A stretch of DNA of 64,000 nt from Candidatus Eiseniibacteriota bacterium (GTDB lineage: Bacteria; Eisenbacteria; RBG-16-71-46), in NCBI GenBank assembly GCA_044222065.1, contig JBGAOA010000001.1, positions 32,001 to 96,000 of the forward strand, written 5' to 3'. How positions within the stretch are numbered: position 1 is the first letter of the stretch; each line of letters opens with the position of its first letter. Positions 3,679 through 23,873 of the stretch are shown piece after piece. The position numbers and the translations under genes were made by a program. The notes beneath the pieces are model-generated. The model had not been told where the DNA came from, ran no database searches, and saw only the letters and a list, made by a program, of their open reading frames with translations.

Positions 3679-3799
3679 GCGGGGCGGAACGCTACTCCCG
3701 GGGCGTCGCGGTGTCGAAACCGCCGCGCGTGCGCACCGCTCGACGCCCGCGCGGCCGCGCCGCTATCATCCGCCGCACTTCTCGCCGCATTTCGAGGCT

Positions 3800-3924
3800 T
3801 GGACTCCGTTGGAAGACCCGAGTGCAAGGCGGCGAGGGAAAGTGGAACGAGGTGTATCCGCAGGATACTCCGCAGTGACGAGTGACCGAGCCAACGCGGC
3901 AATCGGGTCTTCCAACGGAGTCCA
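3800..3924. repeat. Perfect 22-bp inverted repeat enclosing an 81-nt spacer (candidate structured RNA, invertible segment or MITE remnant)
   Basis: TGGACTCCGTTGGAAGACCCGA (3800-3821) is the exact reverse complement of TCGGGTCTTCCAACGGAGTCCA (3903-3924). An inner hairpin GTATCC-gca-GGATAC lies in the spacer. Confidence 0.85.
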
Positions 3925-3940
3925 GCCGAGGTACGTCCCC

Positions 3941-5161
3941 GTGTGGTCCCAGATCGAATCGAAAGTCGCGAACGGTGAGCGCCTCACGTCCGAGGAGGGC
4001 GTGTTCCTGCTGACCGACGCTCCGCTCACCGACCTCGGCGCGCTCGCGAACGAGATGCGCAACCGCAAGAACGACCCGAAGGTCGTGACGTACGTCATCG
4101 ACACGAATCCGAACTACACGAACGTCTGCACGGTGGACTGTCACTTCTGCGCGTTCTACCGCAAGCCGGGCGCGAACGCGTCCGACGCCTACACGCACGA
4201 CGTCGAAGGCGTCATGAAGATGATGGCGGACGCGGACCGCCTCGGCGCGACGACCGTGCTGCTGCAAGGGGGGCTCAATCCTGCGATCGCGTGGGAGTTC
4301 TATCCGGCGATCGTGCGCGAGGCGCGGCGCCGCTACCCGCACATCACCCCGCACTTCTTCTCCGCGCCCGAGATCCACCAGATGGCGGAGGTGTCGGGCC
4401 TGACGATCGAAGGTGTGCTGAAGGCGCTCTACGAGGCGGGCCAGACGACGCTGCCGGGCGGCGGCGCCGAGATCCTCGCGACCCGCGTGCGCAAGCGGAT
4501 CTCGGTGAAGAAGGGCGGACCCGACGCGTGGCTCGACGTGCACCGCGCGGCGCACCGCGTCGGCATGGTGTCCACGGCGACCATGATGTACGGCCACGTC
4601 GAGACGCCCGAGGAGATCGTCGAGCACCTCGGCTACGTGCGCGCGCTGCAGGACGAGACGCGCGGCTTCACGGCGTTCGTGCCGTGGAGCTACAAGCGCG
4701 GGAACACGCCGATGGAGTCGAAGGTGAAGCACATCGCGGGGGCCTCGATGTACCTGCGAGTGCTCGCCGCGAGCCGGCTGTTCCTCGACAACTTCGATCA
4801 CGTGCAGGCGTCGTGGTTCAGCGAGGGCAAGAAGACCGGCCAGATCGCGCTGCACTACGGCGCGGACGACTTCGGCGGCACGCTGTTCGAGGAGAACGTC
4901 CACCTCGCGACCGGGCACGTGAACAAGACCACGATCGCCGAGATCGAGACGCTGATCCGCGAGTCGGGCTACACGCCCGCGCAGCGCACGACGCGCTACG
5001 AGATCCTGCGCGTCGGCGAGGGTCCCGAGGCGCTCGCGAGCCTGAGCGCCGACGTGCCGCTGTTCGTCGAGAGCCTGCGCGAGCTGCCGGCCGAGTACCC
5101 GGACGTGATCGAAGGCGAAGAGTCCGCGCCGGCGAACGGCGGGCTCGTGATGCCGCGCTGA
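3941..5161 (+). CDS. mqnC: Cyclic dehypoxanthine futalosine synthase (radical SAM, futalosine menaquinone pathway)
   Basis: NYTNVCTVDCHFCAF (CxxxCxxC), LPGGGAEIL, ATMMYGHVE, QASW...GADDFGGTLFEENV. GTG 3941 has a GAGGT RBS 8 nt upstream; alternative start at 3875. Confidence 0.85.
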   Translation: MWSQIESKVANGERLTSEEGVFLLTDAPLTDLGALANEMRNRKNDPKVVTYVIDTNPNYTNVCTVDCHFCAFYRKPGANASDAYTHDVEGVMKMMADADRLGATTVLLQGGLNPAIAWEFYPAIVREARRRYPHITPHFFSAPEIHQMAEVSGLTIEGVLKALYEAGQTTLPGGGAEILATRVRKRISVKKGGPDAWLDVHRAAHRVGMVSTATMMYGHVETPEEIVEHLGYVRALQDETRGFTAFVPWSYKRGNTPMESKVKHIAGASMYLRVLAASRLFLDNFDHVQASWFSEGKKTGQIALHYGADDFGGTLFEENVHLATGHVNKTTIAEIETLIRESGYTPAQRTTRYEILRVGEGPEALASLSADVPLFVESLRELPAEYPDVIEGEESAPANGGLVMPR

Positions 5162-5245: not shown

Positions 5246-7462
5246 CTAGGCCGTGTGCGTCGCCGCCTGCGCCGGGACTTCGGCGGGCGCTTCGACGCGC
5301 CGACGCACCGCGGTCGTCTGCTCCTGCGCGCGCCGCACTCCGGCGAGCGCCGTGCCCAACAACGTGAGCAGCGCGCCGACCCACACGAGGTTCACGAGCG
5401 GCTTCACGCTGAAGTCGATGATCGCCGTCGGGATCGCCGCGCCGACCGAGGGCAGGAGCACCGCGATGCGCGCGTTGTCCGCATCCATGCGCGACAGCAT
5501 CAGCTTGCCGCCGCCCGGGAAGTCGGCCGGGATCGCGTGCGAGCCGTGTTCGTCGGCCGTCACCGCGGGCGACACCGTGAAACGCTCGCCGTCGCGCTCG
5601 ACGTCGATGTCGGCGTAGGCCATGAACTGCTGCGCCTCGTGGTCCATGCGGAAGCCGCGGAACGTGTAGCGCGCGCCGCCGACGTCGGTGGACTGGTTCT
5701 TCGTGAGCCACACGGGCTCGGCGTGCCCCTGCGCTTCGGTCGTGCCGACGTCCACGGGCGACACGTAGAGATCGCGCACGAGGTCGAGCGCCGGCGTGTG
5801 CATCATGCCGTCGCCGCGCGGGGACGGCATCATCTTCGGGAGCGCCGTCATGCTCCACTTGCCCTTCTCGACCTTGATCTCGAGCGCGCGCGTGTCACGG
5901 GGCAGCATCTTCGCGCCGGCATAGGTGACGCGATAGCCGAGCACGTCCTTCACCTCGCCGGCGTCGAGCTGCAGCCGCTCGGTGCGGCCGAAGCCGGTCG
6001 AGACCGCGATGCCGACCGCCATGATGGCGACGCCCGCGTGGCCGAGGTAGCCGGCGCCGTACGTCCAGCCGCGGCGGAACAGCTTCGCCGCCATCCACAC
6101 GTTGACGCCGAGCATGAGCCCGGTCGCGAACAGCAGCGCGAGCCACAGCGGATCGCGCAAGCCCGCGAAGAACGACGTCGCGAGCAGCGCGACGCCGGCG
6201 ACGAGCGCGGCCGGGAGGAACGACGTCCACGACAGTCCCTGGCGCGACGTCCAGCGCAGCGCGGGCGCGACCGCCATGAGCAGCAGGATCGCGAGCGCGA
6301 GCGGCATCGTGACGCCGTGGTAGAACTCGGGGCGCACGCTCGCGGGCTTGCCCGCGAGGCCCGTGAGCAGCGGCATCGTCGTGCCGGCCGCGACGAGCAC
6401 CGCGAGCGCGACGACCGTCATGAGGCCGAGCCACAGCGCCGACTCGCGGCTCGCGCTCACCCACTCCACCTTCTTCGGCTCGATCGCCACCCAGCGGAAG
6501 GCGAGCAGCGCGCCGCCGATGAACGTGAAGCCGAGCAGGAACGTCGTCAGCGTTGGCCCGAGGCCCGTGTCCGCGAACGAGTGCACCGAGAAGTCCGACA
6601 GCACGCCGCTGCGCGTCAGGTACGTGCCGCCGACCACCGTCAGCCAGCCGAGTGTGGCGAGCAGCAGGTTCGTGCGCGTCATCGCGCCGAGCGTGCGCTG
6701 GATCAGCAGGCCGTGCAGCATCGCGACCGCCAGCAGCCACGGAACGAGCGACGCGTTCTCGACGGGATCCCAACCCCAGTAGCCACCCCACCCCAGCACC
6801 TTGTACGCCCAGATCCCGCCGAGGACGATCCCCGTCCCGAGGCTCACCACCGCGAACAGCGACCACGGCCAGACGCGCTTGTTCCACTCGTCGTACTCGC
6901 CACGCACGAGCGCCGCGGCACCGAGCGCGAACGGCACGAGCATCGCCGCGTAGCCCACGAACAGGACCGGCGGATGCGCGACCATCCACGGGTCCTCGAG
7001 CAGCGGATTGAGTCCCGCGCCGTCCGCCGGCACGACCGGCGTCGTGACGAACGGGGACTTCGCCATGAGCAGCGCCATCATGAAGAGCTGCGAGAGCCCG
7101 ACGAACGTCATCGCCGGAGCGCTGAGGCGTCCGGGCTGAAGGAACAGGAACACGCCGACGAGCGACCCGAGCGTCGCCCACAGCAGGATGCTGCCTTCCT
7201 GCCCGGCCCACAGCGCCGCGAGCGTGAGCGCCGGAGAGAGCGCGCGCGAACTGTTGTGCGCGACGTACTCGAATTCGAAGCGATGATTGAGGAAATAGCC
7301 TGCGAGCAGTCCGAGCGCGGCGAGGAGCGACATCGAATGGAGCGCGAAGACGATGTTGCCCGCCGAAGAGCGCTCGCGACCACGGAACGTCGTGGCGTAG
7401 ATCCCGGTCGCAGCGAGCGCGAGCAGGAATGCGAATTTGAGGAGCAGGTCCCCGGTGAACAT
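5246..7462 (-). CDS. ccmF: Cytochrome c heme lyase CcmF (System I maturation)
   Basis: WAGQEGS, HPP and WGGYWGWDPVENASLVPWL (WWD domain) motifs, LTRSGVL..SVHSF; ATG 7462 with GGAGG RBS. Confidence 0.92.
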   Translation of the reverse strand: MFTGDLLLKFAFLLALAATGIYATTFRGRERSSAGNIVFALHSMSLLAALGLLAGYFLNHRFEFEYVAHNSSRALSPALTLAALWAGQEGSILLWATLGSLVGVFLFLQPGRLSAPAMTFVGLSQLFMMALLMAKSPFVTTPVVPADGAGLNPLLEDPWMVAHPPVLFVGYAAMLVPFALGAAALVRGEYDEWNKRVWPWSLFAVVSLGTGIVLGGIWAYKVLGWGGYWGWDPVENASLVPWLLAVAMLHGLLIQRTLGAMTRTNLLLATLGWLTVVGGTYLTRSGVLSDFSVHSFADTGLGPTLTTFLLGFTFIGGALLAFRWVAIEPKKVEWVSASRESALWLGLMTVVALAVLVAAGTTMPLLTGLAGKPASVRPEFYHGVTMPLALAILLLMAVAPALRWTSRQGLSWTSFLPAALVAGVALLATSFFAGLRDPLWLALLFATGLMLGVNVWMAAKLFRRGWTYGAGYLGHAGVAIMAVGIAVSTGFGRTERLQLDAGEVKDVLGYRVTYAGAKMLPRDTRALEIKVEKGKWSMTALPKMMPSPRGDGMMHTPALDLVRDLYVSPVDVGTTEAQGHAEPVWLTKNQSTDVGGARYTFRGFRMDHEAQQFMAYADIDVERDGERFTVSPAVTADEHGSHAIPADFPGGGKLMLSRMDADNARIAVLLPSVGAAIPTAIIDFSVKPLVNLVWVGALLTLLGTALAGVRRAQEQTTAVRRRVEAPAEVPAQAATHTA

Positions 7463-7955
7463 GAGAGTGACCTCCGCGAGTGTCGGTGACAGTACGTCGC
7501 GGCCGTTCACTGCGAGATTCGTGCCCTCCAGCCGTGCACGACGCCTCGTCGCGGGCGTCGGGCGCGCGATGCCCTCGCGCCGGACGCCGTGACGCGGGGC
7601 GCACACGGACACGCCGGTCACGCGTTCGCGATCCACTAGCGCGGTGAAACGCGTGGGCTTGCGGCGCGGGCGCGCCCGGCCTCGACGCCCGCGCGCGGGC
7701 GAATGTTCGAGAGCGCAACCGCACGACGCGAGACCCGGATCTCGGATCGCAGACCGGCGAGACCCGATCACCGGCTGCACTCGACTGCGAGAGCGCCGCG
7801 CTCGGCGCGGCAGGAGCCGCTGTCAGGCTGGCAGGTCGGCCCGGGTCGGACCGTTCGCCGACCGACTGCCATTCAGGCAACTTCAAATTACGCTTCTCGT
7901 TGAGAGACAGCGGCTTCGGCCATCCCTGCGTAATCCTACGGATGTTTGTGAAGAA

Positions 7956-7970
7956 TGGCACAAGCGTTGC
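7956..7970 (+). promoter_or_regulatory. Sigma54 (RpoN) -24/-12 promoter upstream of the cytochrome operon
   Basis: TGGCAC-AAGCG-TTGC matches the TGGCAC-N5-TTGC consensus, lies in a locally AT-richer intergenic region and is 94 nt before the first gene. Confidence 0.75.
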
Positions 7971-8063
7971 CGTCTGCGTGCTCGGTGCGGTGGATGTCCG
8001 CATGCGCGCCATGGAAGGCGCGGGTTGCCACCCGATTGAGTCGACTTCCGAGGAGCACTGCAG

Positions 8064-9119
8064 GTGGTTGGTCACGAAGCTCAGATCCGCAGCGGACACA
8101 CGGTCCGCGACGCTCGAACGCCGGAAGCGGCCGCCGGGCGGGGTCGAGCGCACACCTCGAAGCTCCTCGCGCCCGCGACGCTCGTCTTCGCTCTCACGCT
8201 CGCCGCCTTCGCTCGCGAGGCTTCCGCGGCCGAGTACGGGGAGCCGGCGATCGACTCGTCGCACGTCATGGCGATGGCCCACCGCGGCCAGTCGTTCGTG
8301 CGGCCGCGGGCGATCGTCGTGGACGCCGCCCACCAGGAGATCGCGGTCGCGAACACGGGCCTCGGGCGCATCGAGTACTTCGACTTCCGCACCTGGCCGC
8401 GCGGCTACTTCACTCACGTCGTCCCCGACCCGAACGGTCGCGGGCGGGCGGGCGAGCCGTTCGCGCTCGCGCTCGATGGGCAGGACCGGCTCTTCATCTC
8501 CGACCTCTACGTGTCCTACGTGGACGTCGTGGACTTCCGCGGGCGCTCGCTCGCGCACCTGACGCTGCCCGCGCCGGACGACAGCGCCTCGGGCGAGACG
8601 GGACCGGGAGCGCTCGCGATCGCGCCCGATGGCCGGATCCTCGTCGCCTCGCGCGGCAAGCACGGGCGCATCCACGTCTTCGACTCCGAACTGCGGCACG
8701 TGAAGACGTTCGGAACCGCCGGCAAGGACCCGGGCGAGCTCTCGGTCATCACGTCGCTCGCCGTGGATGCGGGTGGACGGACGTACGTCGCGTGCGGCGC
8801 GACGCAATTCGCCGTGCAGATCTTCGACGCCGACGGCCGCTACCTCTCGGGCTTCGGCGTCCACGAAATCGGCCCGGGCAACTTCTCGTTCCCCTCGGCG
8901 GTGACGCTGACGGCAGACGGGAGGGTCTGGGTCGCTGATGCCATAAGACAGCTCGTTCAGGTCTTCGACCCGAATGGGAAGTACCTCGGGGCAGTGGGTG
9001 GAAGCGGGAACAAGCCTGGCGAGTTCACCGAGCCAAGCGCTCTGGCCGGCGATGGACACGGCATCCTGGCGCTGACCGAAAAATCGGGCGGTCGGTTCCA
9101 GGTGATGTGGACGCGCTAG
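8064..9119 (+). CDS. Exported NHL-repeat beta-propeller protein
   Basis: Repeats such as PGNFSFPSAVTLTADGRVWVAD and PGEFTEPSALA; hydrophobic signal-like segment; GAGGAG RBS before GTG 8064. Confidence 0.85.
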   Translation: MVGHEAQIRSGHTVRDARTPEAAAGRGRAHTSKLLAPATLVFALTLAAFAREASAAEYGEPAIDSSHVMAMAHRGQSFVRPRAIVVDAAHQEIAVANTGLGRIEYFDFRTWPRGYFTHVVPDPNGRGRAGEPFALALDGQDRLFISDLYVSYVDVVDFRGRSLAHLTLPAPDDSASGETGPGALAIAPDGRILVASRGKHGRIHVFDSELRHVKTFGTAGKDPGELSVITSLAVDAGGRTYVACGATQFAVQIFDADGRYLSGFGVHEIGPGNFSFPSAVTLTADGRVWVADAIRQLVQVFDPNGKYLGAVGGSGNKPGEFTEPSALAGDGHGILALTEKSGGRFQVMWTR

Positions 9120-9238
9120 CGGAGATCTCCGTCCGACGGGACGGCACCTGGGAGGTGATAAAGACCCCATCCGCAGTACCTGACTACATCGGGCCCGATT
9201 CACTCATACACGCTTCAATCTTCTAGAGGAGTTTCCCA

Positions 9239-10279
9239 ATGAGACGCCTGATCGTTCTCCTGACCGTCGTGCTGACGATGGGTGTGGGGGCGTCTGCTCT
9301 GGCGGGAGATTTCCACGTCGGTACGAACCTGGTCTGCAGTGACTGCCACATCGCGCACTACAGCCAGACTCACAGCTACTCCGGCAGTGGAACCGTGTTC
9401 CCGCCTCTCGGCGCCGGCGGTCCGTTCACCAACCTGCTCCGTGACGAAGAGGTGAAGATGTGCCTCGCCTGCCACGACGGGCAGTCGTGGGCGCCGGACG
9501 TCTTCGGTGCCAGCGCGACCAACAACCGTCGTCTCGCGGGTGGTCTGAACGCCGCCGCGGGGCACGGACTCACCAATGACGCCGGTTACGACGAGATCGA
9601 CGGCCACACGATGTTCTCGACGGCGATGCCTCCGGGCGGCACCGGAACCGCGTACGTTCCGGGCGGCGAGGGGCTCATCTGCACGAACTGCCACGCTCAG
9701 CACGGTTCGGCCTCGCAGTACCGCAACCTGCTCAACCGCGGGATCTTCGCGGGTGACACGCTGAACTACGCGATCGGCACGAACGACCTGACGAAGGCCG
9801 TGTTCGAGCGCAGCGCGGCTTCGTACGTCGAGACGGACGTCGACTTCAACGAGCCGAATCCGACGAACAGTCACTACGGCGCCTGGTGCCAGAACTGCCA
9901 CGTGGACTTCCACGGCTCCGGCGGCGCGGCGAACATGGGTGGCCAGTCGGGCGGCGTCACCGCGGCCAACACCAACCCGTGGAAGCGTCACCCCGTCGCG
10001 GACGTCAACATCGGCACGCCGGGCGCGACGTTCATCAGCAGTCTCGCGCGCTTCAATGGCCTCACGAATCGCGTGAAGGTGATGGACTCGCAGGGTCTGT
10101 GGAACGGCACGACCGCAGACAACACCGTCACTCCGTCCTGCATGAGCTGCCACAAGGCTCACGGCAACAAGAACACGTTCGGTCTGATCTTCATGATCGG
10201 TAGCGGAACGCCGACGGAAGACGGCGACGGTGGTGTGTACAAGGACCTGTGCCGTCAGTGCCACGTGCAGGGCGCGTAG
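9239..10279 (+). CDS. Hexaheme c-type cytochrome, OmcS-like (candidate nanowire subunit)
   Basis: Sec signal ending ALA; six CxxCH (CSDCH, CLACH, CTNCH, CQNCH, CMSCH, CRQCH). Motif order FH-x6-CxxCHxxH...LL..CLxCH...GH..PGG..LxCxxCHxxHG..YR.L...WCxNCHxDxH...RHP...CxSCHxAH...LCxxCH-end parallels Geobacter OmcS as I recall it. GAGGAG RBS. Confidence 0.85.
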   Translation: MRRLIVLLTVVLTMGVGASALAGDFHVGTNLVCSDCHIAHYSQTHSYSGSGTVFPPLGAGGPFTNLLRDEEVKMCLACHDGQSWAPDVFGASATNNRRLAGGLNAAAGHGLTNDAGYDEIDGHTMFSTAMPPGGTGTAYVPGGEGLICTNCHAQHGSASQYRNLLNRGIFAGDTLNYAIGTNDLTKAVFERSAASYVETDVDFNEPNPTNSHYGAWCQNCHVDFHGSGGAANMGGQSGGVTAANTNPWKRHPVADVNIGTPGATFISSLARFNGLTNRVKVMDSQGLWNGTTADNTVTPSCMSCHKAHGNKNTFGLIFMIGSGTPTEDGDGGVYKDLCRQCHVQGA

Positions 10280-10329
10280 CTCGCGCACCGGCTTCGTGAG
10301 CTGATCGGTTTCGAGAAGTCGAAGCACGT

Positions 10330-10369
10330 CACCGAAGGGTGCGGGTCATTCGATCCGCACCCGACGGTG
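10330..10369 (+). promoter_or_regulatory. Intercistronic stem-loop after the OmcS-like gene (mRNA stabiliser or partial terminator)
   Basis: GGGTGCGGGTC-attc-GATCCGCACCC (10337-10362) flanked by CACCG/CGGTG; no U-tract. Confidence 0.5.
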
Positions 10370-10389
10370 CCGAAGGGGCGGAGGGGAGC

Positions 10390-11835
10390 ATGAACGAGCG
10401 CAGACAGCCGGGCCGCGACCGGCCGGGTCCGAACGCGCCCGTGATGCGGCTCGCCGCCTTCGCGCTGCTCGGTGGCGCCGTGATCCTGCTGTGCGCCGCC
10501 GCCCCGAAGTTCCGCGCGCCGCGCTCGGCGAAGGCGATCCAGGAACTGATGGCCGACGGACCGCACGCCGCCGATTGCGACCCCTGCCACTCCGCGCACG
10601 GCGAGGGCGCGACGCCGCAGGAGAACCTGCTGCTCGGCCCGAACGACAACAACCTGTGCCTCGACTGCCACACGGACCCGTGGACGAACGGCAGTTTCGC
10701 GGGCGCGCCGCTCTACGCCGGTTCGGCGCACGGCGCGGGCACGAACAACACGTGGCCCGGCCCGGATCCGCCCGCGCGGCTCGAGCCCGGCGCCGGCGGC
10801 AAGTGCGTCAACTGCCACGACCCGCACGGCTGGACCGACACGAACGGCCGCATCCCGCTGCTCGCGCTCCAGCGCGAAGAGAAGCTGTGCCTCACCTGCC
10901 ACGACGGTGCGCCGGCGACGACGCAGGTGATGGCGGACTTGCTCAAGCCCTTCCGGCACCCGACCACGGACTTCACCGGACGCCACACGGGACCGGGCGA
11001 GATCGCGCCGACCGACTACGGTCGCTCGCCGCTGAACCGGCGCCACGCCGAGTGCGAGGACTGTCACAACCCGCACGTCTCGCGCGCCGACGCGCCGGGC
11101 GGCCCGTCCGGCAGCGACGCGTCGCTCACGACGCTCGGCACGAGCCGCGTGATTCCGCTCAACGGCATCTCGGGGAGCGTGCCGCTCTACACGTTCGTGC
11201 CGGCCTCCGACACGCTCACGGGACCGGTCACGGAGTACCAGTTGTGCTTCAAGTGCCACAGCTCGTGGACCACGCAGCCCTCGGGACAGACCGACTTCGG
11301 GCGCGTGCTCAATCCCGCGAATCCCTCGTTCCACCCGGTCGAAGACCTCGGCAGGAATCCCGGCATCGCACCCGGCGCGTTCACGAGCGGCTGGTCGGCG
11401 GCCTCGCTCACGCGCTGCGGCGACTGCCACGGCTCCGACTTCGGCCTCACGAGCGGCCCGCACGGTTCGATCTACCCGGGCCTGCTCAAGGCGCCCTACG
11501 ACCCGTCGCCGCTCGAGCGCTCGATGGGCTCGGACGAACTGTGCTTCCGCTGCCACAGTCACGAGGTGTACGCGGACCACAACGCGCCGTCGTCGGTCCT
11601 CGAGGCGTCGCGATTCAATCCGCCCCGCGGCGAGGAGGGCCACGCGGAACACGTCGGCAAGGAGCAGATCCCGTGCGGCGCGTGCCACGCGACGCACGGC
11701 TCGACCACGCTGCCGTTCCTGCTCGTGACCGGGCGCAACCCCGGCATCAACTCGTACACGCGCACCGCGTCGGGGGGCACCTGCGCTCCGACCTGCCACG
11801 ACTCCGAGTCGTACACGGTGAACTATGCGCGCTGA
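10390..11835 (+). CDS. Multiheme c-type cytochrome (9 CxxCH + 1 CxxxCH)
   Basis: CDPCH, CLDCH, CVNCH, CLTCH, CEDCH, CFKCH, CGDCH, CFRCH, CGACH and terminal CAPTCH; N-terminal hydrophobic segment; GAGGGGAG RBS. Confidence 0.9.
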   Translation: MNERRQPGRDRPGPNAPVMRLAAFALLGGAVILLCAAAPKFRAPRSAKAIQELMADGPHAADCDPCHSAHGEGATPQENLLLGPNDNNLCLDCHTDPWTNGSFAGAPLYAGSAHGAGTNNTWPGPDPPARLEPGAGGKCVNCHDPHGWTDTNGRIPLLALQREEKLCLTCHDGAPATTQVMADLLKPFRHPTTDFTGRHTGPGEIAPTDYGRSPLNRRHAECEDCHNPHVSRADAPGGPSGSDASLTTLGTSRVIPLNGISGSVPLYTFVPASDTLTGPVTEYQLCFKCHSSWTTQPSGQTDFGRVLNPANPSFHPVEDLGRNPGIAPGAFTSGWSAASLTRCGDCHGSDFGLTSGPHGSIYPGLLKAPYDPSPLERSMGSDELCFRCHSHEVYADHNAPSSVLEASRFNPPRGEEGHAEHVGKEQIPCGACHATHGSTTLPFLLVTGRNPGINSYTRTASGGTCAPTCHDSESYTVNYAR

Positions 11836-13537
11836 GGTCCGCGCCCGCGCGCTGCGGATCGCGGCGCTCGCGTTCACGGCGCTCGCCGCGTTCGCTCACG
11901 ACGTCCGCGCGCAGTACGTGACGGGCTACCTCAAGGGCCAGTTCCAGGTGTTCGAGGACCAGGCGCTCGTTCCGAACGGCGACGGCACGTTCCGCACCGA
12001 CTGGAAGCGCACGGAGCGCTGGACGCAGACGATCGAACTGCAGCACGTCGCGCAGCCCCGTTCCGACCTGCGCGTGATGTCGAACTTCCGCTACACCGAT
12101 CTCTCGTACTCGAAGCTGCCCGACGCGAGCCGCTCGCCGCAGGGGAGCGTCCAGGTGACGCACCCGTGGGCGAGCCTGTTCGCCGCGTATCGGCCGTCCA
12201 CGGTGACGGGCGGCCTCGGCGCCACGGGCGTGAGCGCGGGCGACTCCGCGCGCGCCGGCGCGATCACGGCGCGATCGCAGGAGACGATGCTGCTCGGGCA
12301 GATCGCGCCTCCGAACCTGCCGCGGCTCGACGTCTCGTGGAACCGCCGCCATCGGAACGCCGACGTGCTCTCGCCCGAGGAGGCGGGCGTCAACCGCAAC
12401 GCGCGCCTGTCGTGGACGCGCGGCGCGCTGTCGAGCTACGCCTCGCTCGGCGACCAGTCGATCGACCACCCGGCCCAGAACACGCGCGGGACGACGCAGC
12501 GCACGGGCGGCGCGGGTGCGGCGCTCCACCTCACGCCGACGCGGCAGACCGCGATGGACCTGCAGTACGACTTCGCCGACGCTCGCAGCGGGAACGCGAC
12601 GCTCACCGCCGGCTCGTCGCGCTCCCACAACGCTTCGTTCAACGGCACGCTGCAGCAGCGCGCCGACATGGCCTGGAACGCGAACTGGATGTTCCGCCGC
12701 TCGCAGGCGCGCGGTCCGCGCACCACGACGCTCGACGACCACGAGGCCGCGCTCAACTGGTCGTTCGATCCGCGCGGCCCGCTGCGCCTGCTCGCCGCCG
12801 GCGGCACCCGCACCGCGCGCACCGTCGCGGGCAGCGGGCTCTCGGAGTACGCCTCGGCCGTCGCGTCGCTCGACGGCGACGTGCGCCCGGGCTGGCGCGG
12901 CACCGCGACCGCCTCGCACGTCACGAACTGGGATCCCGGTCACGGCACCTACTCCGTGGACGCGGGCCGCATCGGCTCGCGTCTGCGGCTCGCGCGCGGC
13001 CTCGAAGCGAACGTGGACGCGTCGGTGACCGCGAACGGCGACACCGGCGTGCGCGACTCGCGCGTCGTGAGCGACGCCTCCGGGCGGCTGCGCGCGACGC
13101 CGCTGCGCAGCCTCAACGTCGGGCTGTCGGCCCGCATCTATCGTTCGGGCCCGACGCTCGCCGACGGAAACTCGCGCGCGCGCTCGATCCTGTGGGACGT
13201 GCGGTGGCGGGTCGTGCCGACGCTCGAGCTGACCGGTTCGAGCTCGATCACCGGCGTGCTGCCGAACGACCGGCCGCGCAACACGACGCGGCTCGCCGGC
13301 GCGCGCTGGAATCCGTTCGCGCGCGTGCAGCTCGCGGCCGACTGGTCGAAGAGCGACCAGTCGCGCACCGACAGCAGCGCGCAGCCGGTGAGCGGGCGCG
13401 AGATCGCATCCGCGCACCTGCTCGCGTTACTCTCCCGCTCGCTCCAACTCGATGCGTCGGGGAGCATCGCGGATCGCGGCACCGCGCGCGAAAATCGTCA
13501 GATGAACGTTTCGTTGACCTGGGCCCTCGGGAGATGA
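11825..13537 (+). CDS. Putative outer-membrane beta-barrel protein
   Basis: Signal peptide (..AHDVRA-Q), many amphipathic strands with alternating aromatic residues (e.g. MDLQYDF, WNANWMF, LNWSF), C-terminal MNVSLTWALGR; no heme motifs. Confidence 0.7.
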   Translation: MRAEVRARALRIAALAFTALAAFAHDVRAQYVTGYLKGQFQVFEDQALVPNGDGTFRTDWKRTERWTQTIELQHVAQPRSDLRVMSNFRYTDLSYSKLPDASRSPQGSVQVTHPWASLFAAYRPSTVTGGLGATGVSAGDSARAGAITARSQETMLLGQIAPPNLPRLDVSWNRRHRNADVLSPEEAGVNRNARLSWTRGALSSYASLGDQSIDHPAQNTRGTTQRTGGAGAALHLTPTRQTAMDLQYDFADARSGNATLTAGSSRSHNASFNGTLQQRADMAWNANWMFRRSQARGPRTTTLDDHEAALNWSFDPRGPLRLLAAGGTRTARTVAGSGLSEYASAVASLDGDVRPGWRGTATASHVTNWDPGHGTYSVDAGRIGSRLRLARGLEANVDASVTANGDTGVRDSRVVSDASGRLRATPLRSLNVGLSARIYRSGPTLADGNSRARSILWDVRWRVVPTLELTGSSSITGVLPNDRPRNTTRLAGARWNPFARVQLAADWSKSDQSRTDSSAQPVSGREIASAHLLALLSRSLQLDASGSIADRGTARENRQMNVSLTWALGR

Positions 13538-14136
13538 CCATGTCCGCAGCGCTGCTCCGACTCGCGCGACTCGGCGGCGCGACGCTCGCGCTCGCGACGC
13601 TTGCCTCGTGCGGGGCGTCCCCGCGGCTGTTCGTGAACAAGCAGGCCGATCTCGGTTACTACAAGAAGATCGCGGTAGTCCCGTTCGCGAACCTCGCGCA
13701 GGAGCCGAACGCGGGCGAGCGAGTGACGCGGGCGTTCATGACCGAACTCGTGATCGCCGAGCGCTTCCAGGTCGTGGAGCCCGGGGAGTTCTACGAGCGG
13801 CTCGACCGCATCGGCGGCGTGCCCGACGCGCAGGGGCACGCCGATCCGCAGAAGCTCGTCGACGCCGCGACGGCCGCGCAGGCGAATGCGATCATCCGCG
13901 GCGCCGTGACCGAGTACTCGCTCCAGCGCAACGGCTCCGACGAGTTCCCGCTCGTGACGTTCGAAGCCGAGATGCTCGACGTCGCCACGAAGCAGACGGT
14001 CTGGCGCATCACCGTGACCGAGAAGGGCAAGGGCCGCGTGCCGCTCGTCGGCGGCATGGGCGAGCGCAGCTTCGGCGCCGTCACGCAGCAGGCGTGCAAG
14101 CGCGCGGTCGCGGTCCTGAGGCGGGAGGCGTTTTGA
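13534..14136 (+). CDS. Lipoprotein, CsgG/PelC/TolB-N-like fold
   Basis: Lipobox LASC; KIAVVPFANL...F.VVE...AIIRGAVTEY...MLDVATKQTVW pattern; ATGA overlap with the barrel gene stop. Confidence 0.75.
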   Translation: MTMSAALLRLARLGGATLALATLASCGASPRLFVNKQADLGYYKKIAVVPFANLAQEPNAGERVTRAFMTELVIAERFQVVEPGEFYERLDRIGGVPDAQGHADPQKLVDAATAAQANAIIRGAVTEYSLQRNGSDEFPLVTFEAEMLDVATKQTVWRITVTEKGKGRVPLVGGMGERSFGAVTQQACKRAVAVLRREAF

Positions 14137-14759
14137 GTCCCCGCGCCCCGATCCGGCCCGTGCGCGGCGCCGCGCTCGCGCTCGGCGCCGCGCTCCTGCT
14201 CGGCGGCTGCGCCGCGAGCGTCCCGCCGCCGATGCCCGTCGGCGCGCTCGCGAACCTGCCGCGCGTCGCGATGATGCCGCTCGAGAACCTGTCGGGACGC
14301 CCCGAGGCGACCGAGCCCGTGACGCGGATCTTCCTCGGCGCCCTCGGCGAGACGCGGCAGTGCCAGACGATCGAGCCCGGCGACGTCGAGGGCGTGTTCA
14401 CCGTGCTGCGCATCCGCGACGCGACCGGACTGACCTCGGACCGGGTGCCCGAGGTTGCATCCCGGCTCGGGGCGCGCTATCTCCTCGCCGGCACGCTGCT
14501 CGAGTACGGGTCGGTGCGCTCGCCGGACGGGGACGTGCCGACCGTCGGCGTGTCGCTGCGGCTCATCGACGGGAAGAACGCGCGCGTCGTGTGGAGCGCG
14601 ATGCGCGTGCGTTCGGGAGAGGATCGCGAAACGATGTTCGGGTGGGGCCGCGTGAGGAGCGTGGATCAGCTCGCCGATCGCATCGCGCGCGAGCTGCTCC
14701 GGGATTTCCGGTTGCCGGCGGAAGGGGATTCCGCGGCAGTGGGAGGGGGAGGACGATGA
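14133..14759 (+). CDS. Lipoprotein, CsgG/PelC/TolB-N-like fold (paralog of upstream gene)
   Basis: Lipobox LGGC; RVAMMPLENL...YLLAGTLLEYG...VGVSLRLIDGKNARVVW; TTG start overlaps the upstream TGA. Confidence 0.75.
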   Translation: MSPRAPIRPVRGAALALGAALLLGGCAASVPPPMPVGALANLPRVAMMPLENLSGRPEATEPVTRIFLGALGETRQCQTIEPGDVEGVFTVLRIRDATGLTSDRVPEVASRLGARYLLAGTLLEYGSVRSPDGDVPTVGVSLRLIDGKNARVVWSAMRVRSGEDRETMFGWGRVRSVDQLADRIARELLRDFRLPAEGDSAAVGGGGR

Positions 14760-15286
14760 AGGGACGAACGGGAAGCGCGATGGGTTTGGCGGTGGCGTTC
14801 GCGATCGCGACGGCCGCGTGGGCGCACGGCGCCGCGCCGGCCGCGCCGCCGAAGGGCGCGCCCTCCGCGGCGAACTCGCCCGCGGGCGCGCCGCTCAAGT
14901 TGAAGACGGTGTCGCTGATGATCGGTCATCGCGCGTTCACCGACTTCCGCGACGACGTGTCGGTGCGCCCGCACACGCTGTTCCGCGTCGGCGACACCGA
15001 GTACTCCGCGAAGGTGGTCGAGTTCCAGCCCGACTTCGCCATGGACGTGAAGAAGCACAAGATCACCTCGCGCTCGAACGAGCCGAAGAACCCGGCGGTG
15101 AAGATCGTCGTGTGGAAGAACGGCGCGGCGGACGACACGTCGTGGGCGTTCCTCAACATGCCGCCGCACTTCATGCGCAAGTCCATGCTCGCGTTCCGGC
15201 TCGTGAAGCTCGAGTTCGAGAACGGCCGCGTGATCGAGGCTCCGAAGGACACGACGGCGGTCCGGACCGGGAGCGCCCATAAATGA
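14756..15286 (+). CDS. Small exported protein, possibly DUF2155/ResB-like beta domain
   Basis: Signal peptide ending AWA; FQPDFAMD...ITSRSNEPKNPAVKIVV...WAF motif; translationally coupled at both ends. Confidence 0.6.
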   Translation: MKGRTGSAMGLAVAFAIATAAWAHGAAPAAPPKGAPSAANSPAGAPLKLKTVSLMIGHRAFTDFRDDVSVRPHTLFRVGDTEYSAKVVEFQPDFAMDVKKHKITSRSNEPKNPAVKIVVWKNGAADDTSWAFLNMPPHFMRKSMLAFRLVKLEFENGRVIEAPKDTTAVRTGSAHK

Positions 15287-18200
15287 ACCGCGCTCCGCGC
15301 CGCGTCCTCCGCTTCGCCGCCCTCGCGCTGCTCGCGCTCGCGGCGTTCACGCTCGTGCCCTCGGCCACGGCGTTCGCGAAGCCGAAGGGACAGGCGCGCA
15401 GCTGTTACGACTGCCACACCGAATCGAAGAAGGCGTACGCGAAGAAGTTCGTGCACGCGCCCGTCGCGAAGGTGAAGTGCGAAGCGTGCCACCTGAGCCA
15501 CGGGTTCCAGCAGAAGCTCGTTCTCGTGAAGCCGGCCGAGCAGCTGTGCTTCGACTGCCACGCGGACCTGCAGAAGCGTCCGGCGCCGAAGTTCCCGCAC
15601 GCGGCGTACGCGAAGGGCGAGTGCTACGGCTGTCACGATTCCCACGCGAGCGACACGCCGCACCTCGTGCGCGACGGCGGCCCGGCCGCGTCGTGCTTCA
15701 AGTGCCACGAGGCGACGGCGAAAGAGACGAAGCTGGCCGTCCAGCACGCGCCGTTCCTCAAGGGCGCGTGCGGCGATTGCCACGCGCCGCACGGCGGCGC
15801 CGAGGCGAAGCTGCTCACGGCGGCGCCCGACGCGCTGTGCGCGAAGTGCCACCCGGCCGCAGCCGTGGACGCGAAGCACACGAAGGTGCAGCGCGGCGGA
15901 CTCGCGTGCCTCGACTGCCACGCGGCGCACGCCTCGAGCGCTCCGAAGCTCGCGCGCGCCGGAGCGCACGCGCCGGTCGCCGAGGGCGACTGCGCCTCGT
16001 GTCACGTGATGGAAGCGGGCAAGGCGGGCAAGAAGCTCGTCGACAAGGTCCCGGCGCTCTGCCTCTCGTGCCACGACGACTTCGCGAACCTCGCGCAGCG
16101 CAAGTTCCCGCACGATCCGGCGGCCGAGGGCGACTGCCTCTCGTGCCACGACCCGCATCGCGGCGGCCCCGACGGCAAGCTGCTCAAGGCGTCGCAGAAC
16201 AAGCTGTGCGCCGAGTGCCACTCGGACACGATGGACGAGACGAAGCGCCCCGCGGTCCACAAGGCGTTCGCGCAGGGCGAGTGCTCCTCGTGCCACAACG
16301 TGCACGGCTCCTCGAACGAGCACCTCGCGAAGACGCCCGACGGCGCGATGTGCGCGACGTGCCACACGAAGGTCGCCGAGAAGATCGCGGCGCCGAAGGG
16401 CGTGCATTCGCCGGCCGGCAAGAAGGACTGCCTGCGCTGCCACACGCCGCACGCCGGCAAGCAGAACGCGCTGCTCGTCCAGGACGAGCGCACGCTGTGC
16501 CTGACCTGCCATGCGAGCACCGCGCGCAAGGTCGCCGGCAAGGGCGCGCATCCGCCCTTCAACGGCGGCAACTGCACCGCGTGCCACGATCCGCACCAGT
16601 CGAACCAGGCGAAGCTGCAGCGCGTGCCGACCGCCGAGCTGTGCGGCCGCTGCCATCCGGGCGTCGAGCGCCAGCTCAAGGCCGAGCACACGCACGACCC
16701 GGCGAAGCAGGGCGACTGCCTGTCGTGCCACGGCGCGCACGGCGGCGAGGGCAAGGGATTGCTGATTTCGAAGACGGCGACGCTGTGCGCCGACTGCCAC
16801 GACGACATCGCGAAGAAGGCGGCGGGGCCGGGCGGACACACGGCGGCGGCGACCGGAAAGTGCATCGCCTGCCACGAACCGCACGGCGGCGCGAAGCCGA
16901 AGCTGCTCAAGGCGAGCGGCGGCGCGCTGTGCAAGAGCTGTCACGCCGGCGTCGGCCAGGAAGGCGACGCGAAGCACGCGCCGGTGGAAGAGGGCGACTG
17001 CCTCACGTGCCACGATCCGCACGGCGGAGTCGCCGCGCCCGCGCTCAAGAAGCCGCCCGCGACGCTGTGCCTCGAGTGCCACGACACGGCCGATGCCGAC
17101 ATGAAGACGAAGCACCAGAACGGCGACCTCTCGGGCGGCCGCTGTCTGTCGTGCCACACGCCGCACGCGTCCAAGTCGCCCGGGCTGATCGGCGCGAACG
17201 CGCATCCGGGGTTCGCCGACAAGAACTGCACGAAGTGCCACGGCCCCGGCGCGCCGGCGGCGAAGAACCTGATCGCGGCGCCCGAGGCGCTGTGCGTGCG
17301 CTGCCACGACCAGGCGAAGCCGAAGGCCGAGGGCGCGCGCGTGCACGACCCCGTCACGAAGGGCCGCTGCGTGGTGTGCCACACGCCGCACGCGTCCGAC
17401 CGCAAGGGCCTCGTCACCGCGCCGCAGGAGCGGCTGTGCGCGACGTGCCACGCGACGGTCGCGAAGGACGCGGCGATGTCCCACGGGCACGCGCCGGTCG
17501 CCGACGGCCAGTGCGCGTCGTGCCACGATCCGCACCAGTCGCCGTGGCGCGGCCTCGTGAAGAAGAAGCCGTCGGACCTGTGCGCCGACTGCCACAAGGA
17601 CCTCGCGAAGCGCATCGCCGAAGGCGTGCCGCACGCGCCCGTCGGCCGCGGCATGTGCCTGAGCTGCCACGCGCCGCACGGCTCGGACAAGCCGGGCATG
17701 GTGCGCAAGGAAGGCGCTGCGCTGTGCTCGGGCTGCCACGATCCCAAGGGCGCGAAGCTGATCGCGAAGCACCCCGGGATGGCGATGGAGACGACGAAGT
17801 GCACGAGCTGCCACGATCCGCACGTGCAGGGCAAGAACCGGACGGGGCTCATCCGCCCGTTCCCGCACCTGCCGTTCGCGCGCGGCGAGTGCACGTCGTG
17901 TCACACGGCGAAGGGCGCGAAGACGCTCGTGCTCGACGAGAAGGACCTGTGCGTGAAGTGCCACGAGGCCTCGAAGAACTTCGCCTCGAAGCCGTTCCCG
18001 CACGCGGCCGTCACGTCGGGCGAGCGCTGCATGAGCTGCCACGAGCCGCACGCGGGTGGTGCGAAGGGGGTCCTCAAGCGCTCACCCGAGAAGCTGTGCT
18101 TCGACTGCCACGACCGTTCGGCCTTCAAGGGCTCGAAGCGCCACGAGGCGCTCGACGACGGCTGCAACGAGTGTCACGCGCCGCACGGCGGCGAAGGCCC

Positions 18201-18444
18201 CGGGCTGCTGAAGACGAAGACCGAGCGCGAGACCTGCGCGACGTGTCACACCGACCTGTCGAAGCACTACCACCCGACGCAGAGCGACAAGCCCGATCCG
18301 CGCACGGGACGTCCGATGACGTGCTCGAGCTGCCACCGCTCGCACGCCGCGGACTTCGACGGCCTGCTGCAGTTCGATCCGAAGCGCGAGCTGTGCGTGC
18401 AGTGCCACGATCCGTCCATGGCGCCGCCGCCGAAGAAGAAGTAG
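15283..18444 (+). CDS. Giant 42-heme c-type cytochrome built from paired CXXCH repeats
   Basis: Manual count of 42 CxxCH in 1053 aa; repeating unit H-x-P-x4-5-CxxCHxxH-x~14-LCxxCH; Sec signal ending AFA; Lys-rich. Confidence 0.92.
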   Translation: MNRAPRRVLRFAALALLALAAFTLVPSATAFAKPKGQARSCYDCHTESKKAYAKKFVHAPVAKVKCEACHLSHGFQQKLVLVKPAEQLCFDCHADLQKRPAPKFPHAAYAKGECYGCHDSHASDTPHLVRDGGPAASCFKCHEATAKETKLAVQHAPFLKGACGDCHAPHGGAEAKLLTAAPDALCAKCHPAAAVDAKHTKVQRGGLACLDCHAAHASSAPKLARAGAHAPVAEGDCASCHVMEAGKAGKKLVDKVPALCLSCHDDFANLAQRKFPHDPAAEGDCLSCHDPHRGGPDGKLLKASQNKLCAECHSDTMDETKRPAVHKAFAQGECSSCHNVHGSSNEHLAKTPDGAMCATCHTKVAEKIAAPKGVHSPAGKKDCLRCHTPHAGKQNALLVQDERTLCLTCHASTARKVAGKGAHPPFNGGNCTACHDPHQSNQAKLQRVPTAELCGRCHPGVERQLKAEHTHDPAKQGDCLSCHGAHGGEGKGLLISKTATLCADCHDDIAKKAAGPGGHTAAATGKCIACHEPHGGAKPKLLKASGGALCKSCHAGVGQEGDAKHAPVEEGDCLTCHDPHGGVAAPALKKPPATLCLECHDTADADMKTKHQNGDLSGGRCLSCHTPHASKSPGLIGANAHPGFADKNCTKCHGPGAPAAKNLIAAPEALCVRCHDQAKPKAEGARVHDPVTKGRCVVCHTPHASDRKGLVTAPQERLCATCHATVAKDAAMSHGHAPVADGQCASCHDPHQSPWRGLVKKKPSDLCADCHKDLAKRIAEGVPHAPVGRGMCLSCHAPHGSDKPGMVRKEGAALCSGCHDPKGAKLIAKHPGMAMETTKCTSCHDPHVQGKNRTGLIRPFPHLPFARGECTSCHTAKGAKTLVLDEKDLCVKCHEASKNFASKPFPHAAVTSGERCMSCHEPHAGGAKGVLKRSPEKLCFDCHDRSAFKGSKRHEALDDGCNECHAPHGGEGPGLLKTKTERETCATCHTDLSKHYHPTQSDKPDPRTGRPMTCSSCHRSHAADFDGLLQFDPKRELCVQCHDPSMAPPPKKK

Positions 18445-18710: not shown

Positions 18711-19202
18711 ATGCGCCTCGTTTCTCCCCGCTCACTGCTTCTCGCCTCCGCCTGCCTTCTCGTGACGGCCTCCGTCGCGAGCGCGTGCCCGAATTCGAAG
18801 GCCGCCGCCACGAAGTCCGCGGCGTGCGCCGCGAAGGCCACGCAGACCGCCGCCGTCGCTCCGGTGCCGAACGTGATCGTGCCCGGGCTCTGGGCCTACC
18901 TCGATCCCGAGACCGGAACCCTGACGGGTTCCGTGACGGACCTCGTGGCGCCGAGCGACCTCGTGACCCCGCCGACGACGCTCGCGCTTCCCGAAGTGCG
19001 GCTTCCCGACGGGTCGTACATGGTCGACCTGCAGGGTCAGTTCATGGAGAACGTCGTGATGCACGTCGATCCGTTCGGCATTCGCAGCTTCGTGTGCGGC
19101 CGCGGCGTCAACGTGAACACGCCGGTCGCCGCGCCGAAGGCCCAGGCCCTCGTGCGCATGCCGTCCACCCTGGAGCCGGTGCCCGCGCCGGTGGAGGAGT
19201 AA
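18711..19202 (+). CDS. Small secreted protein upstream of PA-domain protease
   Basis: Signal peptide; YLDPETG.L...PDGSYMVDLQGQFM...VDPFG motif, resembling proteins I recall annotated as post-PEP-CTERM-1 domain; GGAGGG RBS. Confidence 0.65.
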   Translation: MRLVSPRSLLLASACLLVTASVASACPNSKAAATKSAACAAKATQTAAVAPVPNVIVPGLWAYLDPETGTLTGSVTDLVAPSDLVTPPTTLALPEVRLPDGSYMVDLQGQFMENVVMHVDPFGIRSFVCGRGVNVNTPVAAPKAQALVRMPSTLEPVPAPVEE

Positions 19203-19205
19203 CCC

Positions 19206-23024: not shown

Positions 23025-23873
23025 CTAGACGACGTCGAAGCGGGGGGCGCTCGGAATCGCGCCGGCCGCCACCGCGCGTTCGTACAGGCGCGCGATCGCG
23101 CGGCGTCCGGTCTCGCCCATCTCGAGCGTGAGTTCGTTCACGTACATGTGCACGAACGTCTTGCCCTTCTCGACGTCGAGCCCGCGGCCGAAGCGCAACG
23201 CGTAGCGGATCGCGTCCTCTTCGTGGTCGAGCGCCGCCTGAATGCTCGCGCGGAATCCCGTCGAGACCGCCCGCATGAGTTCGGAGCCGAGGTCGCGGCG
23301 CACGACGTCGAGTCCGAGCGGCACCGGCAGGCCGTCGCGCTCCTTCCAGATCTCGCCGAAGTCGAGCACTTTGACGAGCCCTTCCTCGCGGTAGGTGAGC
23401 TGGCTCTCGTGGATGATCACGCCGGCATCGAATTCGCCCGCGGCGACGCGCGCCGGAATCTGGTCGAACATCACTTCGACCGGCGTGCACTCGGGGCACT
23501 CGGTGCGCAGCAGCAGCGCCGCGGTCGTCATGGCCCCCGGGATCGCGACCCGCGCTCCGCGCAGCGATTCGACGCTGCGCGCGCTGCGCGCCACGACGAC
23601 GGGGCCGTACCCGAGCCCCATCGAGGCGCCGCACGCGAGCACCGCGTAGCGGTCGGCGAGGAACGCGTACGCGTGCGCCGAGACGGCGGTGATCTCGAGG
23701 TCGGCGCGCTCGAGCGCGCGACGGTTCAGGCTCTGGATGTCCTCGAGCACGTGCTCGACGTGACAGCCCGGAATGGACGCGAGCCCCTCGTGGAAGCCGT
23801 AGAACATGTAGGCGTCGTCCGCGTCGGGACTGTGGCCGAAGCGCAGCGTGCGAAGGGCGGAGGCGGTGTCCAT
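23025..23873 (-). CDS. mqnD: 1,4-dihydroxy-6-naphthoate synthase (futalosine pathway)
   Basis: GHSPDADDAYMFY, GASMGLGYGP, AIPGAMTTA, DAGVIIHESQLTY, MYVNE motifs. Confidence 0.85.
   Translation of the reverse strand: MDTASALRTLRFGHSPDADDAYMFYGFHEGLASIPGCHVEHVLEDIQSLNRRALERADLEITAVSAHAYAFLADRYAVLACGASMGLGYGPVVVARSARSVESLRGARVAIPGAMTTAALLLRTECPECTPVEVMFDQIPARVAAGEFDAGVIIHESQLTYREEGLVKVLDFGEIWKERDGLPVPLGLDVVRRDLGSELMRAVSTGFRASIQAALDHEEDAIRYALRFGRGLDVEKGKTFVHMYVNELTLEMGETGRRAIARLYERAVAAGAIPSAPRFDVV

Follow-up and report, generated by a model that had tools for sequence, protein, structure and literature searches.

A compact, diverged relative of the omcS/osc gene cluster in a Candidatus Eisenbacteria genome

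The locus and its host

The stretch of DNA analysed here (the window) comprises 64 kb of a 169.5-kb contig from a bacterial genome of 4.2 Mb that is 94% complete and has a GC content of 71.8%. Between positions 5246 and 18444 (5246..18444) the window carries a ccmF gene and, diverging from it, eight co-oriented genes, three of them for multiheme cytochromes; all nine were confirmed from the sequence. The eight-gene operon is a compact, diverged homologue of the omcS/osc genes of Geobacter sulfurreducens and probably builds and exports a conductive filament of a short hexaheme cytochrome. The homology, the conserved gene order, the conserved heme ligands and the barrel fold were established directly; the mechanism given further below is inferred. 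The features of the locus, with the evidence for each in brackets, are the following.

5246..7462, minus strand: CcmF heme lyase, 738 amino acids (aa) (Pfam PF01578 and PF16327; TIGR00353 at E=5e-76, below its cut-off)
7956..7970, plus strand: predicted sigma-54 −24/−12 promoter, TGGCAC-N5-TTGC (strict pattern match)
8064..9119, plus strand: exported NHL beta-propeller (PF01436)
9239..10279, plus strand: short OmcS-family hexaheme cytochrome, 346 aa (~324 mature), predicted filament subunit (profiles, fold match)
10331..10368, plus strand: stable RNA hairpin without U-tract, directly 3' of the hexaheme gene (z=−4.1)
10390..11835, plus strand: decaheme cytochrome (9 CxxCH + 1 CxxxCH), predicted adaptor or base at the barrel (motifs, profile comparison)
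11825..13537, plus strand: plug-less outer-membrane beta-barrel of ~28 strands in an OscE-like slot (model, profiles)
13534..14136, plus strand: lipoprotein 1, PelC/GNA1162/CsgG fold, lipobox LASC, in an OscF-like slot (family profile)
14133..14759, plus strand: lipoprotein 2, PelC/GNA1162/CsgG fold, TTG start, lipobox LGGC, single-domain and OscG-like (profile)
14756..15286, plus strand: small exported protein, free-standing ResB/CcsB-type periplasmic domain, predicted maturation aid (profiles)
15283..18444, plus strand: 42-heme exported cytochrome, fusion of the 26-heme and 16-heme osc cytochromes (profile alignment)

The CxxCH motif occurs 6 times in the hexaheme (9239-10279), 9 times together with one CxxxCH in the decaheme (10390-11835) and 42 times in the last gene product (15283-18444), which makes 58 motifs in total. 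As read from the sequence, every one of the five junctions from 10390 onward overlaps, that of the decaheme and barrel genes by 11 nt (11825/11835) and the other four by 4 nt each (ATG 13534 / TGA 13537; TTG 14133 / 14136; ATG 14756 / 14759; ATG 15283 / 15286). The initial annotation had described the divergent ccmF, the eight co-oriented genes, the 58 motifs and the overlaps from 10390 in the same way. GC at third codon positions (GC3) is high in the frames of the operon and the same order with exactly 42 motifs recurs in 16 of 20 loci of the phylum, for which reasons the cluster is not a product of chance. By eye, a lipobox can be seen in each lipoprotein and a signal-peptide-like N-terminus in each of the other products.

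The host is, to judge from the hexaheme sequence, a member of the Ca. Eisenbacteria lineage, as the initial annotation had surmised for a very GC-rich organism. The nearest hexaheme homologues (79-83% identity) include records titled Ca. Eisenbacteria, and the hexaheme of the window nests among Eisenbacteria rows in a FastTree tree of 110 rows (after thinning of close relatives; without a true root).

Relation to OmcS and to the osc cluster

A profile built from 86 close homologues of the hexaheme cytochrome matched OmcS (6EF8) with E=2.2e-7, the sole cytochrome matched; a profile from 105 diverse homologues reached 6EF8 with E=2.2e-23, above 9YUQ and OmcE (7TFS). The structural model of the hexaheme (pLDDT 77.7) had 6EF8 as its top fold match, end to end, in both searches; in VIA the alignment had a Z of 8.6 and a root-mean-square deviation of 4.2 over 239 residues (21-345 on 1-407), the next match having a Z of 2.7. 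Invariant in 29 rows, close OmcS homologues included, are 12 cysteines and exactly 12 histidines (26, 37, 40, 79, 123, 152, 155, 221, 251, 305, 308 and 342; six proximal, six further). The ligand donated between subunits, which we take to be His16 of OmcS, aligns with His40 of the hexaheme. Of the 12 histidine ligands of OmcS, one is given to heme 5 by the neighbouring subunit (PMC6584659, accessible part). By sequence comparison the hexaheme is thus a distant, shortened OmcS relative with all 12 heme histidines.

A gene cluster around OmcS is already known: the osc system has reportedly been published by Shen et al. in 2025, under a title that is said to call the machinery "widespread and ancient". 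The high novelty implied by the initial annotation was overstated, the osc cluster being in print. In G. sulfurreducens it comprises GSU2501 and GSU2500-GSU2493 (PMC13194489, PMC12977616, accessible parts of both), with oscC = GSU2501, oscI = GSU2495 and oscJ = GSU2494; the roles proposed are folding for OscH, secretion for OscE, OscF and OscG and morphology for OscD (PMC13194489, same part). The accessible text of PMC12977616 describes an eight-gene block in which GSU2495 has 26 hemes, and that of PMC3495685 a YVTN propeller and a lipoprotein in the omcS region. OmcS filaments have been reported in Shewanella from omcS alone (10.1101/2023.10.26.564108, accessible part), which suggests that the accessory genes are not always required.

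For the comparison a surrogate locus (L105, genome G454) stood in for the G. sulfurreducens proteins, with the Osc letters assigned by gene order; L103 served as a second surrogate of the osc type. The hexahemes of L105 match 6EF8 with E=2.7e-147 and 1.7e-132, and its genes follow the order hexaheme, YVTN propeller, barrel, lipoprotein, two-domain lipoprotein, SurA/PPIase, 26-heme cytochrome, 16-heme cytochrome and NHL protein. Homology to omcS and its companions, as assumed in the initial annotation, was found for the hexaheme with OmcS and for the barrel (weakly), the lipoproteins, the NHL protein and the large cytochrome with the osc-type locus. The NHL family profile matched the NHL genes of L105 and L103 with E=3e-18 to 4e-18, which in such a repeat family does not prove orthology. 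The profile of the 42-heme cytochrome, whose motifs follow one another every 20-30 residues, aligns with positions 5-629 (8-629 for L105) to the 26-heme and with 641-1017 to the 16-heme protein of both surrogates. The profile alignment thus identifies the 42-heme cytochrome as a colinear fusion of that pair.

The two arrangements recur among 53 typed loci (within L024-L122; loci of at most 20 kb, duplicates and kin included, so that the counts are descriptive). The fused cytochrome is present in 33 of the 53, in 30 with exactly 42 motifs and in 3 cut by the locus edge, and 31 of the 33 also have the small protein. The remaining 20 have the split pair; among these the small protein occurs in none (0/20), a PPIase in 11 and a YVTN gene in 13.

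The ten motifs of the decaheme and some ten further histidines are conserved in 56 rows. In other lineages this slot is occupied by a hexaheme to which the decaheme is homologous (hhalign 99.8%); the homology of the decaheme to the N-terminus of the OmcS family is local. A single-sequence search of the PDB with the decaheme gave no match, and with the DmsE/MtrA model (TIGR03508) it scored 48 bits, far under the cut-off of 192.

The barrel model (pLDDT 93.3) is all beta with 29 strand elements and has neither a plug nor a TPR region. In VIA many large barrels score alike against it, the Mtr porin being tied at the top (Z 14.9 vs 15.8) and the PelB barrel having a Z of 12.4; the sequence matched no NCBIfam model at all, that of MtrB/PioB (TIGR03509) included. 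The barrel family profile reached the barrel of L105 with E=7.6e-7 and that of L103 with E=0.34, a weak homology, and the profile-profile probability with osc-type barrels was 95.4%. Membership of the operon in the MtrAB family was considered and rejected; cut-offs were missed and a separate MtrAB-like pair is encoded elsewhere in the genome.

The profile of lipoprotein 1 matched 5T11 (E=5.5e-12), 5T10 and 5T0Z, which are presumably PelC homologues, as well as PelC itself (9H80_C, E=6.2e-8), and the lipoprotein of L105 with E=3e-35. The PelC match suggests a ring under the barrel. Lipoprotein 2 is related by profile to the two-domain lipoproteins of L103 and L105 (E=4e-48 and 1e-34).

A contig scan with a broad hexaheme alignment yielded 79 loci. 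Those farther away are titled Zixibacteria, Krumholzibacteriia, Latescibacterota, Gemmatimonadota, Ignavibacteria, Planctomycetota, Acidobacteriota, Armatimonadota and Nitrospinota, with one delta proteobacterium. Within its own phylum the hexaheme profile matched 65 of 206 genomes and 43 of the 121 good ones, a few of them through weak paralogues alone. In 20 loci of the phylum the recurring order is NHL protein, hexaheme, second cytochrome, barrel, two lipoproteins, small protein and large cytochrome. The NHL gene is missing from its usual place in two of them; the four in which the large cytochrome does not have exactly 42 motifs in one frame comprise two cut by contig ends and two with broken frames. 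The gene order is conserved in other phyla too, and the Atlas clusters of the barrel and of the small protein are commonest in the Eisenbacteria phylum. Seven further loci (L111-L114, L119, L121, L122) hold osc-type blocks (26 + 16 hemes, PPIase, lipoproteins) with 5- or 7-heme OmcS-family paralogues in place of hexahemes; these are further variants of the machine. A literature search, mostly outside subscription journals and without Shen et al. 2025, found no paper describing the operon in Eisenbacteria, and the accessible parts of PMC11495043, PMC9769843 and PMC12133095 contain no description of it.

Expression, heme maturation and metabolic setting

Besides the site at 7956-7970 no strict match to the sigma-54 pattern occurs in the window, and the whole genome, which has one sigma-54 gene, contains 15. 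At related loci, which are not independent of one another, the strict pattern was found in 11 of 50 and a relaxed pattern, set after the strict result was known, in 23 of 50 (2.0 expected). For the hairpin that follows the hexaheme gene, with a predicted role in stepping down or stabilising the transcript, z<−2 was found in 27 of 35 related loci and in 0 of 35 control stretches. The hexaheme gene has the strongest preference in the operon for T over A at third codon positions (T3-over-A3) in 31 of 37 loci, and here it ranks 6th of 1711 open reading frames, a score that the amino-acid make-up may inflate. A first codon score, in which the hexaheme ranked 1st of 1589, was set aside as weak because EF-G ranked just 407th and low-GC frames ranked high.

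Part of the operon was found in 18 RNA runs from 8 studies of sludge, wastewater and bioreactors. In all four of the 18 runs examined (from 4 studies), the hexaheme gene is covered in whole or in part by exact-match contigs, two of which span the gap between the NHL and hexaheme genes. In run X1 the contig depth on the hexaheme gene was 84 and 36, as against 2-7 for the six other listed pieces, values not used for ranking. The RNA evidence is a hint only, the contigs having no DNA control. Together the sigma-54 site, the hairpin, the codon bias and the RNA contigs point to the hexaheme as a high-copy product.

The small protein alone matched nothing in Pfam or NCBIfam and no sequence in the PDB. 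Its profile matched 77 of the 206 genomes of the phylum, in 17 just weakly and within long frames; all six weak places that were checked proved to be Pfam ResB proteins in long open reading frames. Profile-profile comparison gave 99.4% with ResB (control 0.3%), and the Atlas structure look-alikes are DUF2155 and ResB (TM 0.50-0.57). On account of these matches and look-alikes we regard the small protein as a domain of the System II cytochrome c synthase that has become detached. The host genome contains no other ResB match and is that of a System I (Ccm) user. With PPIase the comparison gave 2.5% and with CcmF 0.5%, in neither case a likeness; the initial annotation, which had included a chaperone in the module, is to be corrected in that the small protein is homologous to a ResB domain and not to the PPIase of the osc chaperone slot. 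It may hold apo-cytochrome for CcmF.

The linked CcmF keeps the WWD-domain motif WGGYWGWDPVEN, and its gene probably starts with ATG 7462 rather than with GTG 7780, relatives aligning from that methionine. The sole CcmE gene of the genome lies on contig C58 together with a CcmB gene, a CcmC-type gene and a second ccmF. In relatives the linked ccmF is intact at some loci, reduced to a C-terminal remnant at others, or absent. The locus is therefore not the self-contained module of the initial annotation: CcmB, CcmC and CcmE are encoded elsewhere, and many related loci have no intact ccmF beside them. The remnants (408-485 aa, e.g. L004:4173-5564; similar in L005, L006, L024, L029, L032, L034-L037, L045, L047 and L096) are conserved and match the C-terminal half of CcmF only, without the WWD motif; the one scanned had no Pfam match. 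They are possibly non-catalytic partners of CcmF.

Heme motifs occur at least twice in 34 frames of the genome (275 motifs in total); the genome also has two matches to heme-copper oxidase subunit I and a NosZ of clade II type that scores over its cut-off. A gene for a 13-heme cytochrome c plus cytochrome b, presumably CbcL-like, lies directly behind the 42-heme gene in 8 locus rows, with duplicates counted. It is 56-60% identical to a gene on contig C35 of the host. The position of this homologue suggests it as the electron source. Were the hemes spaced as in MtrA, which spans 80 Å with 10 hemes (PMC12806980, accessible part), 42 of them in a straight chain would extend over about 36 nm.

Contig C35 also encodes an MtrAB-like pair (L124:6510-9713; decaheme 239 bits, over cut-off, and barrel 237 bits, just under), near which lie the 13-heme c/b protein, a 19-heme and an 18-heme cytochrome and a Rieske protein. 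On contig C72 an OmcE-like tetraheme cytochrome (L126:3201-4205; 7TFS E=7.5e-17, 9YUQ E=9.1e-17) is accompanied by other cytochromes and an NHL-like frame, possibly a second nanowire-type locus in the same genome. On contig C85 a ferredoxin/flavin reductase-like gene is followed by two neighbouring frames that have 34 and 20 heme motifs (L125:13942-18517), and contigs C45 and C78 (L002 and L003) have two lone 7-heme distant relatives of the hexaheme without companion genes.

Around the operon itself lie genes of the futalosine pathway of menaquinone synthesis (window 3677-5161, MqnC over cut-off; 23025-23873, PF02621), and mqnC adjoins the operon in two of the 20 related loci also. Window 18711-21161 encodes a small post-PEP-CTERM-like protein and an M36-like metalloprotease with a PA domain and a C-terminal domain of the type IX secretion system (T9SS), a pair not kept beside the operon in relatives. 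The remark in the initial annotation on T9SS-like C-terminal domains is plausible: the gene at 19206 scores 30.2 bits with TIGR04183 (cut-off 23), and the genome has one SprA_N match.

Proposed function and comparison with known systems

We propose the following mechanism. From the sigma-54 promoter the operon would be read into one transcript, on which the hairpin would secure a surplus of the hexaheme over the translationally coupled downstream genes. The apo-cytochromes would be exported via Sec and receive heme from the linked CcmF using the CcmB, CcmC and CcmE encoded elsewhere, probably with the aid of the free ResB-type domain in place of a PPIase chaperone. Beneath the plug-less barrel the two lipoproteins would assemble into a ring like that of PelC, with the decaheme placed at the barrel to serve as base or adaptor. 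Subunits would be linked head to tail, His40 of each being bound to a heme of the subunit that follows. Electrons from an inner-membrane quinol dehydrogenase of the multiheme c plus cytochrome b type would cross the periplasm along the 42-heme chain.

The operon very probably works like the osc system. Because two accessory features of the canonical cluster are absent, we call it a variant of that published system. The likely products are filaments. Only tentatively, and with some doubt, do we suggest a second, streamlined OmcS wire architecture in Eisenbacteria and allied uncultured phyla, with real filaments in an O2- and N2O-respiring sludge bacterium, in which the subunit is thinner, the pore smaller, the periplasm spanned by a single 42-heme chain and the PPIase chaperone replaced by a hybrid aid to maturation, in which a free-standing ResB domain of System II works alongside a CcmF of System I dedicated to the locus.

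Several points weigh against filament formation by an OmcS-like subunit. The single hexaheme sequence found no match in the PDB by phmmer, the similarity being so remote that only profiles reach OmcS; its model matched 6EF8 in Foldseek only weakly (E=0.015); it is ~22% identical to a close OmcS homologue; and its clade is separate from the OmcS-like group in the tree. His40 is also retained in the paralogues of the second slot and is therefore needed but not sufficient. Osc accessory genes are absent, neither a PPIase (0/33) nor a YVTN gene (0/33) occurring in the fused-type loci. The Foldseek search with the barrel model had the Mtr porin 6R2Q_B at the top (TM 0.51), and the depth of RNA contigs without a DNA control cannot rank genes. 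In G. sulfurreducens only OmcS among four paralogues is known as a wire former, and the authors warn that profiles cannot pick out authentic OmcS wires in other genera (PMC12977616, accessible part). The physiological role of OmcS filaments is disputed (PMC11077965, accessible part). OmcS filaments have been reported in Shewanella from omcS alone (10.1101/2023.10.26.564108, accessible part), which suggests that the accessory genes are not always required.

It is unlikely, though to be taken seriously, that the operon encodes a porin-cytochrome conduit without long filaments, in which the decaheme or the tip of the 42-heme protein would run through the barrel, as MtrA runs through MtrB, and the hexaheme would be a cytochrome abundant at the cell surface as a monomer or short oligomer. 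The plug-less barrel of ~28 strands next to a decaheme, with the Mtr porin first in Foldseek and tied for first in VIA, speaks for such a conduit, and the eight-gene block may predate wire formation (PMC12977616, in the same part). Large barrels, however, all look alike in VIA, and this one has no MtrB/PioB match while the separate MtrAB-like pair scores 237 and 239 bits. As signs that the subunit is made in excess, the hairpin and the codon bias fit a polymer better than a 1:1 conduit.

A quite improbable alternative is that the same machine works inward or as a store, taking up electrons from reduced minerals, humics or partner cells for the respiration of O2 or N2O, or buffering them in the periplasm during redox swings. 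The two oxidase subunit I matches, the clade II-type NosZ, the 34 multiheme frames with their 275 motifs and the origin of the examined RNA runs in sludge and bioreactor metatranscriptomes are in line with this. Yet the nearest characterised system exports electrons, and the linkage to a quinol-side multiheme c/b protein fits export; the direction of flow itself is not something that a sequence can give. A chance cluster, or a Pel-like polysaccharide exporter beside unrelated cytochromes, is hardly credible despite the PelC match of the lipoprotein family and the Z of 12.4 with the PelB barrel, being already largely refuted by synteny: the genes are translationally coupled, keep a fixed order with the cytochromes across phyla and, according to family scans, include no glycosyltransferase.

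If the operon does make filaments, it bears on their secretion and anchoring, which are described as still unresolved in the accessible parts of PMC12307469 and 10.1101/2025.10.22.684050. The variant has a smaller core of subunit, second cytochrome, barrel, two lipoproteins, one long periplasmic chain and NHL protein, and therefore indicates which parts of the machine are likely essential. At 13 kb, the locus is a unit that a laboratory host could be made to express. Its presence also suggests electron exchange with the surroundings in an uncultured lineage that is common in sludge, soil and sediment. Since the osc system is already published, the gain is one of range and minimal design, not of a new principle.

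Compared with OmcS (GSU2504; 6EF8/6NEF), the hexaheme has the six CxxCH in register, the 12 heme histidines and the overall fold, as best match, in common; it differs in its length (~324 vs 407 mature residues), in the ~22% identity to the close OmcS homologue and in its separate clade. With the osc cluster, as represented by L105, the operon shares an OmcS-family hexaheme, a second cytochrome ahead of the block, a large barrel, two PelC-fold lipoproteins, a content of 26 + 16 hemes, an NHL protein and nearly the same order. It differs in having neither the YVTN propeller (OscD) nor SurA/PPIase (OscH), whose slot is taken by the free ResB-type domain, in the fusion of the 26- and 16-heme proteins, in a barrel of 541 rather than ~700-760 aa, in a single-domain second lipoprotein, in a decaheme instead of a hexaheme in the second slot, in the NHL gene being first and in the linked ccmF (System I).

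MtrAB and other porin-cytochrome conduits (6R2Q) likewise have a large plug-less barrel adjoining a decaheme, but the operon belongs neither to the MtrB/PioB nor to the DmsE model, and the true MtrAB-like pair lies elsewhere in the genome. The PelBC exporter (9H80; PelC) resembles it in the lipoprotein fold and in the layout of barrel plus lipoprotein, whereas the operon has two lipoprotein paralogues, a larger barrel without TPR in the model, cytochromes as cargo and, by family scans, no pel synthesis genes. With ResB/CcsB of System II the small protein shares homology to a domain inside the ResB of other genomes of the phylum; unlike ResB it is free-standing and exported, has no membrane part and occurs in a System I host.

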